Assembly: GCA_045605445.1 (NCBI GenBank)
Contig: JAZUPZ010000024.1
Coordinates: forward strand, 1,956 to 65,955
Direction: 5' to 3'
Length of the DNA stretch: 64,000 nt
From: Clostridia bacterium
GTDB lineage: Bacteria; Bacillota; Clostridia; RGIG6154
The notes beneath the pieces are model-generated. The model had not been told where the DNA came from. It was given only the letters and a program-made list of their open reading frames with translations, and searched no databases. The translations under genes were made by a program, and so were the position numbers. Positions 3,761-61,826 of the stretch are shown here, piece after piece; the first letter of the stretch is position 1, and each line of letters begins with the position of its first letter.

Positions 3761-3807
3761 AACTTCGCCGACAGGCGAAACATCACTTGCCGAAGGCAAA
3801 CTTAACT
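3761..3807. repeat. Short linker-hairpin array (ACATCAC/ACTT linkers)
   Basis: AAC-TTCGCC-GACA-GGCGAA-ACATCAC-TTGCC-GAA-GGCAA-ACTTAACT. Confidence 0.55.
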
Positions 3808-3815
3808 GATTCGAT

Positions 3816-3845
3816 ATTGACGAAATCGTCAATCAGATATATAAT
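3816..3845 (+). promoter_or_regulatory. Sigma-A promoter with perfect palindrome over the -35 box
   Basis: TTGACG(3817)-N17-TATAAT(3840); ATTGACGA-AA-TCGTCAAT at 3816-3833. Confidence 0.65.
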
Positions 3846-8771: not shown

Positions 8772-8931
8772 TTTTTTGCTGGCGGAGAAGTGGATTCGAA
8801 CCCGAGAGGGCACTCGCCGTTAAGAAAACGATTGATAATCGTTTTCAGGTGAGTGGTGCGAAGTCCGGTACCGAAGCCAAAGGCTTGGGTGGACAAGCAC
8901 GGCAGATTGCCTGCAATCTGCATCGAATCCC
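8772..8931. repeat. tRNA-linked structured element, copy A
   Basis: Inverted copy of the tRNA-Ser 3' end followed by a multi-stem body with GGTACCGAA; homologous to 9098-9250 and 53144-53289. Confidence 0.8.
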
Positions 8932-29064: not shown

Positions 29065-29322
29065 AAAAAGCAGACCGTATGTGTTGTATCCTTAGGGATA
29101 CAACACCGATGTTTGCAACAAGTTGCAAATGAAGCACGCTTCGCGTATGATGTTTGTTCTTACGAACAAATGAAGTATTTGTTAAACAAATATTATGGAA
29201 AAAAGTTGTCTTTTCAGACAACTTTTTATCATTAACTTCGCTGCGTAGCAACTTACCTCGTGCGAAGCACGAACATAATTGAGGTTATCCTTTAGGAGAA
29301 CCACTTTAACGGTCTGCTTTTT
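29065..29322. repeat. 258-bp gene-less hairpin array bounded by a 14-bp inverted repeat
   Basis: AAAAAGCAGACCGT...ACGGTCTGCTTTTT enclosing ~9 mini-hairpins joined by TGA(A/T)G linkers (5' half) and ACTT/ACAT linkers (3' half). Confidence 0.75.
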
Positions 29323-30688: not shown

Positions 30689-30848
30689 TTCAACCCCTTA
30701 AATCATTCTACACTCATTATAGAAACCAACAGATGAAAAGTAAATGTATTTAAACGAACTATATGGAATTTTCCGAACAATATTGTTGATTTTATTACTC
30801 TTATATGCTAAACTGTTTTCAGAAAACTCAAAAAGGAGTTTGAAAATT

Positions 30849-31604
30849 ATGTTTGACAATATGGAAAATATAAAACTTATTTCTTATTCAAAGGGAACTG
30901 CCTCTCAGAGCTCGAAGGTTGAAAACAGAAAAACACATCTTTTCCTTTTCAGAACCTCGGGAACAACCTGCCTTACAGCAGAGGGAGAAAGCTATGTGCT
31001 CAACTCCGGTGAAATGCTTTATATTCCAAAAGGACTTTCTTATGAATCGGGAAAAATTTCAGAAGAAGATTGTGAATACACCGCCGTTGTTTTCGATGCA
31101 GACATTGAAATCACAAAGCCGAAAAAATATTTAACCAAAGACATCCCCGAAGGCGAATTTATATGCAGTCACCTGCCCGATATGTGGAAGCTTGGTACAA
31201 CTGCCGATAAACTTAAATGTATTTCAATGTTTTACGGCATTTTGTCACACATTTCAAATATTGAAAACTCGGCATACTCAGAAAAATCAAAATTTGAAAT
31301 TATTGAGCCTGCCATAAAATATCTTAATAAAAATATTTTTAAAACCACCTTTAAGGTGGACTCGCTTCCTGCAATCTGCGGAATTTCGGACACTTATTTC
31401 AGAAAAATATTCATTGCAAAATACGGAACAACTCCGCAAAAATACGTTGTTTCAAAACGCCTTTCCCACGCAAGAACCATTATTGACATAGGCCATATTA
31501 AATCCGTCTCAAAGCTTGCTCTTACGGTAGGCTATAAAGACCCACTGTATTTTTCCAAAGCCTTTAAGAAAAAATACGGCATCTCCCCATCAGAGGCAAA
31601 CTAA
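30849..31604 (+). CDS. AraC-family regulator
   Basis: C-terminal VGYKDPLYFSKAFKKKYGISPS; AGGAG before ATG 30849; divergent from the MATE gene. Confidence 0.88.
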   Translation: MFDNMENIKLISYSKGTASQSSKVENRKTHLFLFRTSGTTCLTAEGESYVLNSGEMLYIPKGLSYESGKISEEDCEYTAVVFDADIEITKPKKYLTKDIPEGEFICSHLPDMWKLGTTADKLKCISMFYGILSHISNIENSAYSEKSKFEIIEPAIKYLNKNIFKTTFKVDSLPAICGISDTYFRKIFIAKYGTTPQKYVVSKRLSHARTIIDIGHIKSVSKLALTVGYKDPLYFSKAFKKKYGISPSEAN

Positions 31605-31645
31605 AAACTGCACCCGCGCCGAGTTTTTCGGTACGGGTGCAGTTT
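31605..31645. terminator. Intrinsic terminator
   Basis: AAACTGCACCCG...CGGGTGCAGTTT hairpin between convergent genes. Confidence 0.75.
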
Positions 31646-31678
31646 ATTGTCACAAGTGAATTTCATCAGTTACCAATT

Positions 31679-32014
31679 TTAAACAAGCTTTTTTAATTGT
31701 TTTACAAGTATTGGTAATTCCTCATAAACAACAGAGGCAATTATATTCCAATTTGTGCCTTCATAATTGTGAACCAATCTGTGTCGGAGACCGGAAATCA
31801 TAGACCATGGCACATCATTATGCATAGTTTTATATTCATCAGATAAGGCATACACCTGTTCTCCGATATTATATAAAGGTGTAGTAACCAACCATTGCAT
31901 TGCATAATCTTTAAGCAATTTTTCTCTTGTTATATTATTTTCACTAATATGATTCAGAAGCTTTTCAGCATATTCGCATATTTTCTGAACACGTTGTTTG
32001 TCAGAGTATTTCAT
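31679..32014 (-). CDS. HepT-like HEPN ribonuclease toxin (DUF86)
   Basis: IGE...VPW..ISGLRHRLVHNY (R-x4-H-x-Y); overlaps the antitoxin stop (ATGA). Confidence 0.88.
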   Translation of the reverse strand: MKYSDKQRVQKICEYAEKLLNHISENNITREKLLKDYAMQWLVTTPLYNIGEQVYALSDEYKTMHNDVPWSMISGLRHRLVHNYEGTNWNIIASVVYEELPILVKQLKKLV

Positions 32015-32319
32015 GCCACATTTAACCTCTCATTCATAATAGTGGAATAAAAATCGCTATCAGTATTTATCTCGCTTATTTCAAACACGTCAACCGGTCT
32101 TTGAAACGCAGTTCTTAATTCCTCCGCAAGGGCAAAAATATTTGTTAATTTGAAATTTTCTCCGCCAAAAACCAAAAAGTCCAGATCGCTGTTTTCCGTT
32201 GCCTCTCCACGGGCGTATGAACCAAACAAGTATATAGACTCTACATTATACTTATCCGCAATTGGCTTTATGATATCTTTTATTCCGTCTATAGTATAAA
32301 CAGCACCTGACATATACAC
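32011..32319 (-). CDS. MntA-like minimal nucleotidyltransferase antitoxin
   Basis: LFGSYARGEATENSDLD (GS-x10-DxD). Confidence 0.88.
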   Translation of the reverse strand: MYMSGAVYTIDGIKDIIKPIADKYNVESIYLFGSYARGEATENSDLDFLVFGGENFKLTNIFALAEELRTAFQRPVDVFEISEINTDSDFYSTIMNERLNVA

Positions 32320-32395
32320 TTGCTCCTTTCACCTTTGTTATGTTTATTATATCAAAACACTGTAAAAAAATCAATATTTTAAATTTGTGCGAAAA

Positions 32396-32490
32396 ATGCA
32401 CCGCAAAAGCGGTGCATTTCATGGTTTACCATTTCATTCACCGAAAGGTGAATTTCATTCGTCGCAAGACGAATTTCATTGAATAAATAA
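32396..32490. repeat. ATTTCAT-linked hairpin array, downstream of the four-helix-bundle gene
   Basis: Four hairpins each followed by TTTCAT; first 44 nt repeated at 32960-33003 with 1 mismatch. Confidence 0.85.
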
Positions 32491-32496
32491 TTTTAT

Positions 32497-32850
32497 TTAT
32501 TCTTTTTTCAGATTCTCTTTTGCAGTATTTATTGAAGAAATGAGAATTTTTCTTATTTTACCGCAATCATTTTTAAAAGTTTTATATGTATTTTCTTCTA
32601 TTATTTTTGTCCTCATAAAAAGTTCAAGCCAATACTCAGTTTCATAACATTCCTTTAGGGCAATTTGCATTTTTGAAATAAAGTCCAATTTGCTTTGCGC
32701 ATAATTGGCTTCATGAATATTTGCACCAATACTTGTAGCGCTTCTTAACATTTGATTTGTCAGAACCGCTTTCCCTTTTGTTGCATCGCACCAATTAACA
32801 ACATTTACTGAAAAATCCATAGATAAGTCAATTAAAATATTCTTAGTCAT
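32497..32850 (-). CDS. Four-helix-bundle protein (23S rRNA IVS protein / Avd-like fold)
   Basis: QMLRSATSIGANIHEANYAQSKLDFISKMQIALKECYETEYWLEL signature; AAGGAG before ATG 32850. Confidence 0.92.
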   Translation of the reverse strand: MTKNILIDLSMDFSVNVVNWCDATKGKAVLTNQMLRSATSIGANIHEANYAQSKLDFISKMQIALKECYETEYWLELFMRTKIIEENTYKTFKNDCGKIRKILISSINTAKENLKKE

Positions 32851-32866
32851 ATTTTTTCTCCTTGTT

Positions 32867-33030
32867 ATGAAATGCACTTCGTGCTTGAAATGACAAAGCT
32901 TCGCTTTGTCTTGAAATGTGCTGTCGCACATGAAATGAAATTCGTCCTCTTAAGAAAATATGCACCGCAAAAGCGGTGCATTTCACGGTTTACCATTTCA
33001 TTCGCATAAGCGAATTTCATTGAATAAGTA
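32867..33030. repeat. Two oppositely oriented linker-hairpin arrays upstream of the four-helix-bundle gene
   Basis: 32867-32944 has TGAAAT-linked hairpins; 32960-33030 has ATTTCA-linked hairpins. Confidence 0.85.
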
Positions 33031-33033
33031 AGA

Positions 33034-33180
33034 TTTTTGATGCAGAACGGACGAAAGGAATCGAAACGAAAGTTTCGACTTGCCCGAAGGCGTACTTTGT
33101 GTACGTCGAGAGGTGAGTTTCGTTCGTAGCAAAAAAGAACTCCGCGTTAACGGAGTTCTTAAATTGCGTTCTGCGCAAAA
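33034..33180. repeat. Branched GTAC-tipped hairpin containing a GAACTCCG arm
   Basis: TGCAGAACG...CCGAAG-GCGTAC-TTTGT-GTACGT-CGAG...GAACTCCG-CGTTAA-CGGAGTTC...CGTTCTGCG, next to the GGGtGRT stop. Confidence 0.7.
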
Positions 33181-33183
33181 AGA

Positions 33184-34185
33184 TTACTTATTCATGGCTT
33201 CTTCAATAGCAACAGCTACAGCTACAGTCATACCAACCATTGGGTTGTTACCTGCGCCGATAAGTCCCATCATTTCAACGTGAGCCGGAACTGATGAAGA
33301 ACCTGCGAACTGAGCATCTGAGTGCATTCTTCCCATTGTATCTGTCATACCGTAAGAAGCAGGACCTGCAGCCATGTTATCAGGATGAAGTGTTCTTCCT
33401 GTGCCGCCGCCTGATGCAACTGAGAAATATTTCTTACCCTGTTCGATACATTCCTTTTTGTATGTACCTGCAACAGGATGCTGGAATCTTGTTGGATTTG
33501 TTGAGTTACCTGTAATAGAAACGTCAACGCCTTCAAGGTGCATAATTGCAACGCCTTCACGAACATCGTCGGAGCCGTAGCAACGAACTTTTGCTCTTTC
33601 ACCCTTTGAGTAAGCTGTTTCTTTAACAACTTTAACTTCGCCTGTGTAGTAATCGAACTGAGTCTGAACATAAGTAAAGCCGTTGATTCTTGAAATAATC
33701 TGAGCAGCGTCTTTACCAAGACCGTTAAGAATTACTTTAAGGTCTTCTTTTCTTGCTTTGTTAGCTGATCTTGCAAGACCGATAGCACCTTCTGCAGCAG
33801 CAAAAGATTCGTGACCTGCCAAGAAAGCGAAGCATTTTGTTTCGTCTCTTAAAAGCATAGCACCGAGGTTACCGTGACCGATACCAACTTTTCTGTCGTC
33901 TGCAACAGAACCGGGGATACAGAATGACTGTAAGCCAAGGCCGATTTTTTCAGCTGCATCTGCAGCCTTTGTGCAACCGTCTTTAATTGCGATTGCAGCG
34001 CCTACGATGTAAGCCCAGCAAGCGTTTTCAAAGCAGATAGGCTGAATGCTTTTTACTAAATTATATACATCGATACCCTTATCGTCGCAGATCTGTTTTG
34101 CTTCTTCGATGGAAGAAATGCCGTGTTTCGCCAGCTCTGCGTTGATCTGGTCGATTCTTCTTTCATAACTTTCAAATAAAGCCAT
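33184..34185 (-). CDS. GGGtGRT protein (function unknown)
   Basis: Literal SGGGTGRTLHP motif and MALFESYERRI N-terminus. Confidence 0.92.
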   Translation of the reverse strand: MALFESYERRIDQINAELAKHGISSIEEAKQICDDKGIDVYNLVKSIQPICFENACWAYIVGAAIAIKDGCTKAADAAEKIGLGLQSFCIPGSVADDRKVGIGHGNLGAMLLRDETKCFAFLAGHESFAAAEGAIGLARSANKARKEDLKVILNGLGKDAAQIISRINGFTYVQTQFDYYTGEVKVVKETAYSKGERAKVRCYGSDDVREGVAIMHLEGVDVSITGNSTNPTRFQHPVAGTYKKECIEQGKKYFSVASGGGTGRTLHPDNMAAGPASYGMTDTMGRMHSDAQFAGSSSVPAHVEMMGLIGAGNNPMVGMTVAVAVAIEEAMNK

Positions 34186-34203
34186 TGTATGCTACCTCCT
34201 TAA

Positions 34204-34902
34204 TTATTCGTGACGAGGATCGATGAGCTTTGCTGCATCGTCAACTCTGCCGTACTGACCGCTTGCTTTTTCCATAGCTTCGTTTGCGTCCATACCTTTA
34301 GCAATCATTTCCATCATTTTGCCGAGGTGAACGAATTTATAACCGATAATCTGATTGTCTTCATCAACTGCGATTTTTGTTATGTAACCTTCTGCAAGTT
34401 CAAGATATCTTGGACCTTTTTCAAGAGTTGCATAGGTTGTACCAACCTGTGAACGAAGTCCTTTACCAAGGTCTTCAAGACCTGCACCGATCGGAAGACC
34501 ATCTTCTGAGAAAGCTGTCTGAGTACGACCGTAAACAATCTGAAGGAACAATTCTCTCATAGCTGTGTTTATAGCATCACAAACAAGGTCTGTGTTAAGA
34601 GCTTCAAGAATTGTTTTACCAACGAGGATTTCAGATGCCATAGCAGCTGAGTGGGTCATACCTGAGCAACCAACTGTTTCTACGAGTGCTTCCTGGATGA
34701 TACCTTCTTTTACGTTAAGTGTAAGCTTACATGTACCCTGCTGAGGAGCACACCAGCCGATACCGTGTGTAAGGCCGGAAATATCTTTAACTTCCTTAGC
34801 CTGGGTCCATTTACCTTCCTGCGGAATTGGAGCAGGACCGTGATATGCACCTTTAGCTAAAGGGCACATATGCTGTACTTCTGTTGAATATTTCATATAC
34901 AT
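34204..34902 (-). CDS. NifU/IscU-like scaffold-fold protein, partner of GGGtGRT
   Basis: GWCAPQQGTCKLTL, GCSGMTHS, LVCDAI cysteine pattern. Confidence 0.8.
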   Translation of the reverse strand: MYMKYSTEVQHMCPLAKGAYHGPAPIPQEGKWTQAKEVKDISGLTHGIGWCAPQQGTCKLTLNVKEGIIQEALVETVGCSGMTHSAAMASEILVGKTILEALNTDLVCDAINTAMRELFLQIVYGRTQTAFSEDGLPIGAGLEDLGKGLRSQVGTTYATLEKGPRYLELAEGYITKIAVDEDNQIIGYKFVHLGKMMEMIAKGMDANEAMEKASGQYGRVDDAAKLIDPRHE

Positions 34903-53129: not shown

Positions 53130-53143
53130 GGATTTAATTCGTG

Positions 53144-53289
53144 GGGAATCGAACCCTGAGAGGGCACTTGCCGTTAAGAAAACAATTGATAATTGTTTTT
53201 AGGCAAGTGGTACGAATCGGGTACCGAAACCGTAGATTTTGGTCGATGAGTACGGGAAGCTTTCAACGAAAGATTCCTTCCCGTCAACA
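53144..53289. repeat. tRNA-linked structured element, copy C
   Basis: GGGAATCGAACCC (inverse of the Thr T-arm)...GGTACCGAA...TTCCCGTCAACA (direct copy of 53079-53090). Confidence 0.8.
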
Positions 53290-61715: not shown

Positions 61716-61786
61716 AATTCAATTCGTGTTGCCTTGCAACAATTCATGGCAAAGCCAATTCACGACAACAACGTTGTCAATTCAAT
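61716..61786. repeat. AATTCA-linked hairpin array
   Basis: AATTCGT-GTTGC-CTT-GCAAC-AATTCAT-GGC-AAA-GCC-AATTCAC-GACAAC-AAC-GTTGTC-AATTCA. Confidence 0.75.
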
Positions 61787-61826
61787 CATAAAGAAATTTT
61801 AGCCGCTTTTTTGGGTTTTTCTTTAT

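Follow-up and report, generated by a model that had tools for sequence, protein, structure and literature searches.

What kind of system places a small four-helix-bundle gene in the midst of three arrays of short hairpins joined by a repeated word? We addressed this question at a locus within a 64,000-nt stretch of DNA from a Clostridia bacterium (contig JAZUPZ010000024.1), hereafter the window, whose numbering is used throughout unless another contig is named. Around a 117-aa gene on the minus strand lie three arrays of short perfect hairpins with the joining word ATTTCAT/ATGAAAT. The gene proved to be a stand-alone member of the 23S-rRNA-intervening-sequence (IVS) protein family (S23p / PF05635 / TIGR02436), the arrays belong to the Rfam motif Gut-1, and in many gut Clostridia the gene and Gut-1 arrays recur together as a conserved unit whose word depends on the protein clade. 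The gene and its three arrays had been described before in an original prediction made from the letters of the window, and both a direct reading of the sequence and a repeat finder confirmed their coordinates and content. The elements of the locus are as follows.

32396..32486, minus strand: forward array, an extra copy 3′ of the gene, with four UGAAAU words in the gene sense and hairpins between them (Gut-1 match)
32497..32850, minus strand: 117-aa four-helix-bundle gene (PF05635 23S_rRNA_IVP, TIGR02436)
32865..32946, minus strand: reverse array, in the gene sense four AUUUCA words (the first one doubled) and three hairpins
32953..33022, minus strand: forward array upstream of the reverse array, in a three-unit form (Gut-1 match below the cut-off)

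The gene at 32497-32850 matched Pfam PF05635 (E 6.4e-26, 91.1 bits against a cut-off of 33.8) and TIGR02436 of NCBIfam (E 1.8e-29, 102.2 bits against a cut-off of 24), in agreement with the TIGR02436-type identity that had been proposed. An alternative open reading frame (ORF) of 144 aa in the program list starts at 32931; the 117-aa start at 32850 was preferred because of its GGAG ribosome-binding site and the length of the family. R36, S40, N44 and E47 were invariant in 22 aligned sequences and correspond to the motif RxxxSxxxNxxE, which a part of PMC3936711 names for the family. When a profile of 22 homologues (family f1) was compared with the PDB, it retrieved 2RLD at E 3.1e-48. The PDB relatives 2RLD and 2GSC contain five chains each, and Xcc0516 is described as a toroidal homopentamer in an excerpt of PMC4990558. 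By analogy with these solved relatives, the window protein is probably a ring of five four-helix bundles, and such a pentamer would fit the four to five words of each array without constituting proof. The gene had no PADLOC defence-family match, on which ground a defence system was ruled out. A CRISPR-like array was also discarded, as the constant part measures 7 nt, the variable parts are palindromes and there are no adjacent cas genes. Avd, from diversity-generating retroelements, is a pentamer that binds nucleic acid. In contrast to the setting of Avd, none of the six ORFs scanned in 30744-34902 matched a reverse-transcriptase family, the remaining window and template/variable repeats not having been searched. 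The likeness, as far as an excerpt of PMC10053308 describes it, is one of fold and family between Avd and PF05635.

The arrays were identified by an Rfam scan of the window, in which 32411-32481 (minus strand) matched RF01706, Gut-1, with 51.8 bits against a curated cut-off of 50 (E 3.7e-9), and the alignment to the model contained all three stems and the four words. A sensitive Gut-1 scan added two matches below the cut-off, one at 32865-32941 (plus strand, 33.2 bits, E 1.8e-4) and one at 32953-33022 (minus strand, 31.1 bits, E 6.4e-4). With three covariance-model matches at these E values, the arrays are not due to chance, and they belong to a known motif that had not been recognised in the original prediction. 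Since the Gut-1 consensus consists of three hairpins joined and flanked by UGAAAU, the outer arrays are forward in the gene sense and the inner array is reverse. The word ATTTCAT occurred 32 times in the window against an expectation of 23.3 +/- 5.1, and 9 of the 32 occurrences fell inside 32416-33020. In the portion consulted of Weinberg et al. (PMC2864571), Gut-1 is a candidate non-coding RNA of 2010, found in human gut sequence only and presented with no function given. Elsewhere in the literature searched it was named only as a folding benchmark, and no paper there linked it to a PF05635 protein; the supplement of PMC2864571, which may mention a gene association, was not covered by this search. 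While they share with RF01706 the three hairpins joined or flanked by UGAAAU words, the arrays described here differ from it in being tied to a protein gene, in forward and reverse pairs. They also have sister word classes (TGAATT, CGATAT, ATGAAG and GCTAAA) which match the Rfam model weakly if at all, and relatives in metagenome-assembled genomes from the ruminant gut.

The geometry of the three arrays agreed with what had been described. The inverted third array (32865-32946) abuts the ribosome-binding site, its final word lying 6 nt 5′ of GGAG. Its linkers are complementary to those of the outer arrays, with 13/13 matches between 32934-32946 and 32468-32480 and 11/11 between 32867-32877 and 32412-32422, in both cases with the downstream outer array, and the complementarity also appears in minimum-free-energy folds. 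Both matches are short segments, not a continuous stem of ~28 bp around the ORF. The array at 32396..32486 has the canonical four-unit form and ends in the hairpin GCACCGC-UUUU-GCGGUGC (32396-32417). In the array at 32953..33022, the last hairpin (32960-32981) and the U-rich tail after it resembled an intrinsic terminator in a terminator scan.

To what extent is this arrangement general? To measure the pairing of forward and reverse words, each 6-mer was counted in both orientations in the 330 nt upstream of an ORF and the lower of its two counts was kept; the highest value reached by any 6-mer was then used, with a threshold of at least 3. Among control ORFs of the source genome, 12 of 1597 reached this value; the PF05635 loci reaching it in 18 genomes of the bacterial family were 12 out of 25. 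We then turned to the 80 closest homologues in one-genome-per-species contigs, all of which came from gut Clostridia assembled from metagenomes. Their ORFs were recovered in 79 cases, 74 of them with the full upstream stretch, and 66 of these 74 loci reached the threshold, which upheld the idea of a protein-plus-array system. In most of the listed loci the layout was four forward words, a gap of ~30 nt, four reverse words, the ribosome-binding site and the gene, and the last reverse word was located 20-60 nt 5′ of the ATG. Median word spacing was 20 nt in forward and 23 nt in reverse arrays, and the unpaired gap between hairpins measured 3, 5 or 7 nt. Arrays 3′ of the gene, such as that of the window, were present at 3 of the 80 loci.

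Gene-less arrays outnumber the genes, and they depend statistically on the gene. Within the family, which was also the single family obtained by sampling at the order level, none of the four genomes lacking PF05635 (G002, G005, G010 and G011; 72-97% complete) had a Gut-1 match at E <= 0.001, while at least one match was found in 13 of the 14 genomes carrying PF05635. The four gene-less genomes belong to three genera whose other members carry the gene and arrays. We also used an even set of 151 genomes of the class, in which Gut-1 was scored at E <= 1e-5 and PF05635 in 150 of them. Gut-1 was found in 27 genomes and PF05635 in 52 of 150; the gene was present in 24 of the 27 Gut-1-positive genomes versus 28 of the 123 Gut-1-negative ones. 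Arrays and gene thus co-occur across genomes, with exceptions that are weighed below. Absence of the gene from an assembly is weak evidence because many PF05635 matches sit at contig ends. The GCTAAA pattern was expanded in seven genomes, with 6 to 43 matches, and four of the seven have a gene-linked GCTAAA array.

Among the gene-less GCTAAA elements, L144 and L147 (both in G008), L145 and L152 each combine the two arrays with a promoter and a hairpin at the 5′ side and with a conserved 3′ box (GCATCTAAA...), and L144 and L147 have direct repeats of ~28 nt on both sides. Some gene-less GCTAAA elements precede an unrelated ORF with its own ribosome-binding site and could be portable leaders.

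Altogether, five word classes were distinguished (TGAAAT, TGAATT, CGATAT, ATGAAG and GCTAAA), each with its own protein clade. Mapped onto a 102-protein tree, the word class changed 13 times, compared to a mean of 43.7 when the classes were shuffled, and 0 of 200 shuffles gave a value as low; the expected co-variation of linker and protein clade was therefore observed. The TGAATT, CGATAT and ATGAAG clades had starred support, and GCTAAA formed one group. At residue 49 (32704-32706), two positions after E47, proteins of the TGAAAT and TGAATT classes had N, those of CGATAT and GCTAAA had K and those of ATGAAG had Q, with full conservation inside each word class. This residue may be considered a candidate specificity position, as a lead only and one confounded by phylogeny.

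The source genome itself contains three PF05635 genes, and all three paralogues share the same order on the sense strand, that is, forward array, reverse array, ribosome-binding site and gene. They use different words.

Window paralogue: forward TGAAAT, reverse ATTTCA; located after the GGGtGRT gene
Contig C7 paralogue: forward GCGATAT (x4), reverse ATATCGC (x4); TTGAAA-17-TATAAT and a 5′ hairpin lie ahead of it
Contig C8 paralogue: forward ATGAAG, reverse GCTTCAT; located after two tRNA genes and a terminator

In the whole genome, 24 Gut-1 matches were obtained at E <= 1, five of them above the cut-off. A first strict detector, which asked for an exact 6-mer at least three times together with perfect hairpins, listed 17 loci versus 3 in a shuffled genome, missed known arrays and was replaced. 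A sliding scan with the forward/reverse 6-mer statistic gave 31 windows with a value of at least 3, versus 5 after shuffling. The gene-less arrays carried the words of the three resident paralogues, and in addition those of the TGAATT class and of a GTGATG class. For the GCTAAA class, neither a gene nor an array pattern match was found in the source genome. This use of resident words by gene-less arrays is less trivial evidence than the match between word and clade at gene-linked arrays. Near-identical arrays were located at unrelated loci, where the RNA gene and terminator that they follow differ from copy to copy. Near-identical copies were also seen in genomes of other families, and one string of units was identical by eye in G087, G047 and G040.

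The gene-less arrays pointed out earlier at 3761, 29065 and 61716 of the window are real hairpin arrays with other joining words. The one at 29065-29320 is of an ATGAAG/ATGATG class and has a 12-nt outer stem, AAAAGCAGACCG / CGGTCTGCTTTT, and a central terminator-like hairpin. The array at 61716-61790 stands alone after a terminator and consists of AATTCA words, the reverse form of the TGAATT class; judged by eye, it shares homology with the corresponding arrays in TGAATT leaders of other genomes (L005), and the source genome is without an intact TGAATT-type gene. The array at 3761-3830 belongs to a class with the word AGTGATGTT, and CTTCAC on the other side, which was also seen in G000 on contigs C33 (x3), C49, C51 and C27 (x2). 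Arrays of this class are near-identical and have the same flanks on several small contigs, and they may be part of a larger repeated unit. The GCGATAT cassette of contig C7 (L030, G000:C7:59580-60260) is ~655 nt long, with 24-nt direct repeats on each side that correspond to its 5′ hairpin. It is followed by a truncated TGAATT-type array, an order that suggests cassette replacement via recombination at the shared 5′ hairpin.

Many distant members of the family carry a plainer version of the repeats. Inverted tandem 6-8-mers flanked the gene at 10 of 19 printed loci when read by eye (e.g. L124, L135, L140 and L121), and the family loci L002, L003, L004, L015 and L026 likewise had them, some directly after a tRNA gene. 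The 23S rRNA IVS, according to the passages available of PMC4990558, contains three tandem heptamers 5′ of the S23p start codon, with a copy number that varies among strains, and a 28-bp terminal stem that RNase III cleaves. As distant members and the IVS carry tandem heptamers, the hairpin arrays look like the same heptamer design with one hairpin looped out per word. The locus resembles the IVS with its S23p ORF in the protein family and in heptamers just 5′ of the start codon. Around the ORF of the IVS, complementary ends can form a stem, the corresponding matches at the locus being the short segments (13/13 and 11/11) given above; the IVS is regarded as selfish in the same passages (PMC4990558). 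The locus differs from the IVS, which is sited in helix 25 or 45 of a 23S rRNA gene, in that the Rfam scan gave no rRNA match in the window, the cassette lying between the GGGtGRT gene and the nucleotidyltransferase/HepT genes. In addition, the heptamers are separated by hairpins, both arrays are usually upstream and many copies are gene-less. As separate observations, PF05635 genes with inverted heptamers were located directly after a tRNA-Arg gene with no terminator (L002/L015 in G017:C9, L001 and L003), and G017 has two such genes, a tRNA and a Gut-1 pair inside 2 kb.

We then considered the surroundings of the locus and its counterparts in related species. All neighbours are on the minus strand, with the GGGtGRT gene upstream and the nucleotidyltransferase/HepT pair downstream, and the upstream boundary comprises the following features.

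33021-33039 / 33176-33194 (33021..33194), no strand assigned: 19-nt inverted repeat that connects the first array word with the stop codon of GGGtGRT
33184..34185, minus strand: GGGtGRT gene, upstream neighbour (Pfam E 1.6e-195)

In 10 related species, the 330-nt upstream stretch of the homologous locus contained the end of the same GGGtGRT gene. In the five relatives that were printed, the stop codon within a small hairpin was followed by four TGAAAT words, four ATTTCA words, the ribosome-binding site and the gene, and the fourth forward hairpin was GCACCGC...GCGGTGC with a U-rich tail after it. The relatives have a single forward array in this same place, directly after the GGGtGRT gene, while the window has an insertion of ~135 nt in the stop-codon hairpin, a three-unit upstream forward array and a four-unit forward array 3′ of the gene. 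The simplest history is that the forward array was duplicated, or that the whole unit was duplicated and the second gene lost. The outer direct repeat, originally given as 44 nt, is indeed present, and the repeat finder extended it to 48 nt with 96% identity (32392-32439 / 32956-33003). It is best explained by the additional forward array 3′ of the gene. A further block of 31 nt is shared with 84% identity (32470-32500 / 33011-33041). Between the shared blocks, the left copy contains TTCACC-GAAA-GGTGAA and TTCGTC-GCAA-GACGAA and the right copy TTCGC-ATAA-GCGAA alone; the reported difference in hairpin number and content, two on the left and one on the right, was thus reproduced. In view of the single forward array of the relatives and the 3/80 loci with downstream arrays, this explanation of the 48-nt repeat is preferred to a target-site duplication or insertion footprint. 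Because the position of the cassette is kept in the relatives, the window copy has not been recently mobile, and nothing seen at this locus supported the excision, circles or spread that had been suggested. The one same-genus genome, G003, was fragmented at the locus and had an unrelated ORF-bearing segment beside its GGGtGRT gene.

The ~135-nt insertion (33040-33175), which sits in the loop of the stop-codon hairpin, has an 8-bp outer stem, GCAGAACG/CGTTCTGC, and several inner hairpins. It holds the terminator of the operon, bidirectional-looking, at 33135-33160 and is absent from the relatives. On the other side of the locus, the HepT-like ribonuclease and the nucleotidyltransferase (31679-32319, minus strand) overlap by 4 nt and resemble a toxin-antitoxin pair, with a promoter-like site at 32374..32346, just past the downstream array.

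How might the protein and the arrays work together? We tentatively favour autoregulation by a pentameric ring that reads the word, which we regard as plausible and somewhat short of probable. The protein ring would recognise, in the transcript, the word specific to its clade; looping out of the hairpins would bring consecutive words side by side, topologically like the plain tandem heptamers of distant members. Because the last word lies near the start codon and, in the subclade of the window, a terminator-like hairpin lies between the arrays, binding, or a competing pairing of words with anti-words, would set read-through and translation, and the protein would control its own message much as TRAP or CsrA do. 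Arrays without a gene that carry the same word elsewhere in the genome would serve as further targets or decoys. Several structural features speak for an element acting as RNA. TTGAAA-17-TATAAT and a 5′ hairpin were read by eye before the forward array at several gene-linked and gene-less loci, and these promoters and 5′ hairpins place the arrays inside a transcript. A terminator-like fourth hairpin is located between the two arrays in the subclade of the window, and minimum-free-energy folds often paired words with anti-words in a nested manner (L1:R4, L2:R3, L3:R2 and L4:R1). In TRAP and CsrA/CsrB, a ring or multimeric RNA-binding protein reads a short repeated word in the target leader, and decoy RNAs exist. 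The logic would be alike, with a repeated word next to a terminator and ribosome-binding site, a protein that forms oligomers and further RNAs that carry the word; in contrast, the folds are unrelated, hairpins separate the words here, which occur in either orientation, and the binding of the protein to the arrays is putative. A more far-reaching version is doubtful and leans towards unlikely: stand-alone IVS-family proteins in general would read a repeated heptamer by a clade-specific code, for which residue 49, next to the conserved RxxxSxxxNxxE face, is a candidate determinant, and gene-less arrays, as structured small RNAs or single-stranded DNA hairpin arrays, would be propagated or maintained by the protein.

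A number of observations weigh against autoregulation by a word-reading ring. The forward and reverse arrays are complementary, so that a reader of single-stranded UGAAAU would miss AUUUCA, and either duplex recognition or competing pairing would be needed. No promoter-like site preceding the PF05635 gene was found in the window by the terminator and promoter scan. The correlation between word and clade does not by itself show recognition, since it is also expected from linkage, the leader being inherited with the gene. Arrays were present and the gene was not detected in G044, G066 and G134, which are 92-97% complete, and in G008, with 32 GCTAAA-pattern matches, PF05635 was matched only by a TGAATT-type copy that an in-frame stop interrupts. 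The more distant PF05635 genes of the class mostly lack hairpin arrays, with 22 of 28 loci scoring below 3. Finally, the stems are nearly pure: 158 forward and 172 reverse distinct spacers contained 714 and 810 pairs, respectively, nearly all of them Watson-Crick, and allowing G-T lengthened 3 forward and 8 reverse stems, while allowing A-C lengthened 3 and 4. Such stems are unusual for a purely RNA-level structure. The loops were mainly TTC, TGC, TAC, TTGC and TTAC in forward arrays and their complements GAA, GCA, GTA, GCAA and GTAA in reverse arrays, a strand symmetry which suggests that one element, turned over, gives the reverse array, as in DNA repeats. Within a locus, forward and reverse loops were complementary in 13 of 135 comparisons versus 8.4 in shuffles, with 46 of 1000 shuffles as high.

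Processing of the IVS type and a DNA-level repeat system are serious rivals of the proposed autoregulation. The first of them, which we consider possible and rather doubtful, holds that the cassette is selfish: word and anti-word arrays would pair in the transcript and a host nuclease, RNase III or another, would cut there, releasing or insulating the cassette from host transcripts such as rRNA, tRNA operons or the 3′ end of the GGGtGRT operon. The stem would be ~4 x 7 bp, interrupted by hairpins as a ladder of four-way junctions, and the protein would not be an array reader. That the family owes its definition to ORFs inside 23S rRNA intervening sequences speaks for it, as do the inverted heptamers of distant members, which would enclose the ORF and in some cases directly follow a tRNA with no terminator. 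The nested word/anti-word pairing frequent in minimum-free-energy folds would also be explained, although the word helices are 6-7 bp long and AT-rich and their register is ambiguous in the folds. In 31 four-plus-four loci there were 13 deviating words and one complementary pair (L016), too few for an argument from compensatory change. At the window locus, pairing of 32934-32946 with 32468-32480 (13/13 complementary) would place the entire ORF in a loop, and the cassette directly follows a stop codon in 10 relatives; at most loci, however, both arrays are upstream and the ORF is left unenclosed, downstream arrays being confined to 3/80. Insertion of family genes between cas genes, reported in the part seen of PMC3936711, is in line with a selfish cassette. 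What such processing leaves unexplained is why gene-less arrays need the gene. In the second rival, the arrays would be dispersed DNA-level repeats, single-stranded or duplex DNA sites, with the gene as the autonomous partner for their copying, spread or maintenance and the gene-less arrays as non-autonomous copies, an explanation that we find unlikely. It would account for numbers (24 Gut-1 matches versus three genes here and up to 43 GCTAAA-pattern matches elsewhere), for near-identical arrays at unrelated loci and in genomes of other families, for unit numbers that differ between copies and for direct repeats around cassettes (24 nt on contig C7, ~28 nt at L144 and L147, 48 nt in the window). 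The stems are perfect palindromes without G-T pairs, and the strand-symmetric loop bias gives C-GNA-G triloops on one strand. C-GNA-G triloops form exceptionally stable DNA mini-hairpins. REP elements with RAYT genes and the pneumococcal BOX are dispersed, modular, palindrome-rich repeats. Like REP/RAYT (REPINs) and BOX, the present arrays are intergenic and found after terminators, a repeat class is specific to the clade of the linked gene, the gene is flanked by repeats, and the convergent forward/reverse pairs resemble the inverted REP doublets. Unlike RAYT genes, the linked gene matches PF05635 alone in Pfam, with no HUH tyrosine transposase family and no defence-family match for this 117-aa helical bundle, and the constant part is a short joining word instead of a palindrome. 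Moreover, the position of the window locus is kept in 10 other species, hairpins vary between arrays while words stay constant, unlike in recent copy-and-paste, promoters and 5′ hairpins imply transcribed arrays, and no pair of empty and filled sites was found, the sole same-genus genome, G003, being fragmented at the locus.

It is very improbable that there is no functional tie and that the arrays are generic structured repeats which settle in the same safe intergenic niches as the gene. Both are often found after tRNA genes and terminators, some genomes have arrays and no gene, and 28 of 123 Gut-1-negative genomes carry the gene. Nevertheless, a shared niche does not predict that 66 of 74 loci keep the same order, orientation and distance from the start codon, nor the matching of five word classes each to its own protein clade, nor the lack of arrays in 4/4 gene-less family genomes whose sister genomes have both.

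These results join two long-known orphans, the Gut-1 motif and the stand-alone IVS-type four-helix-bundle proteins, both without known function. Gut-1 becomes part of a broader group of word-plus-hairpin arrays, abundant in gut Clostridia, and such arrays probably break many metagenome assemblies. The three paralogues with three words in one genome constitute a built-in specificity matrix. If these proteins do read heptamers, they and their hairpin-spaced arrays would represent a previously unrecognised protein-plus-repeat system, which would explain both Gut-1 and the 30-year-old puzzle of the IVS ORF and could bear on how Avd engages nucleic acid.

Metatranscriptomes covered small shares of the window in thirteen runs. 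Four of them were mapped, with deep cover on GGGtGRT only, from relatives of 90-99% likeness. In these four runs, low-depth contigs lay over the ORF (32470-32817) and no contig lay on the outer arrays; the bins of the reverse array had a depth of 0.6-1.8 in two of the four, a cover that carries no weight for or against transcription of the arrays. Apart from the arrays, a conserved non-coding element was observed 3′ of tRNA-gene terminators at 8790-8920 and 53140-53260 of the window, at ~103700-103800 of G000:C44 and at ~880-1000 of L149. It had no convincing match in Rfam, all hits being far below the cut-offs. A 463-aa ORF beside it was ruled out as a transposon gene, as it encodes a glycosyl hydrolase. 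The element contains the complement of a tRNA-like T-arm.

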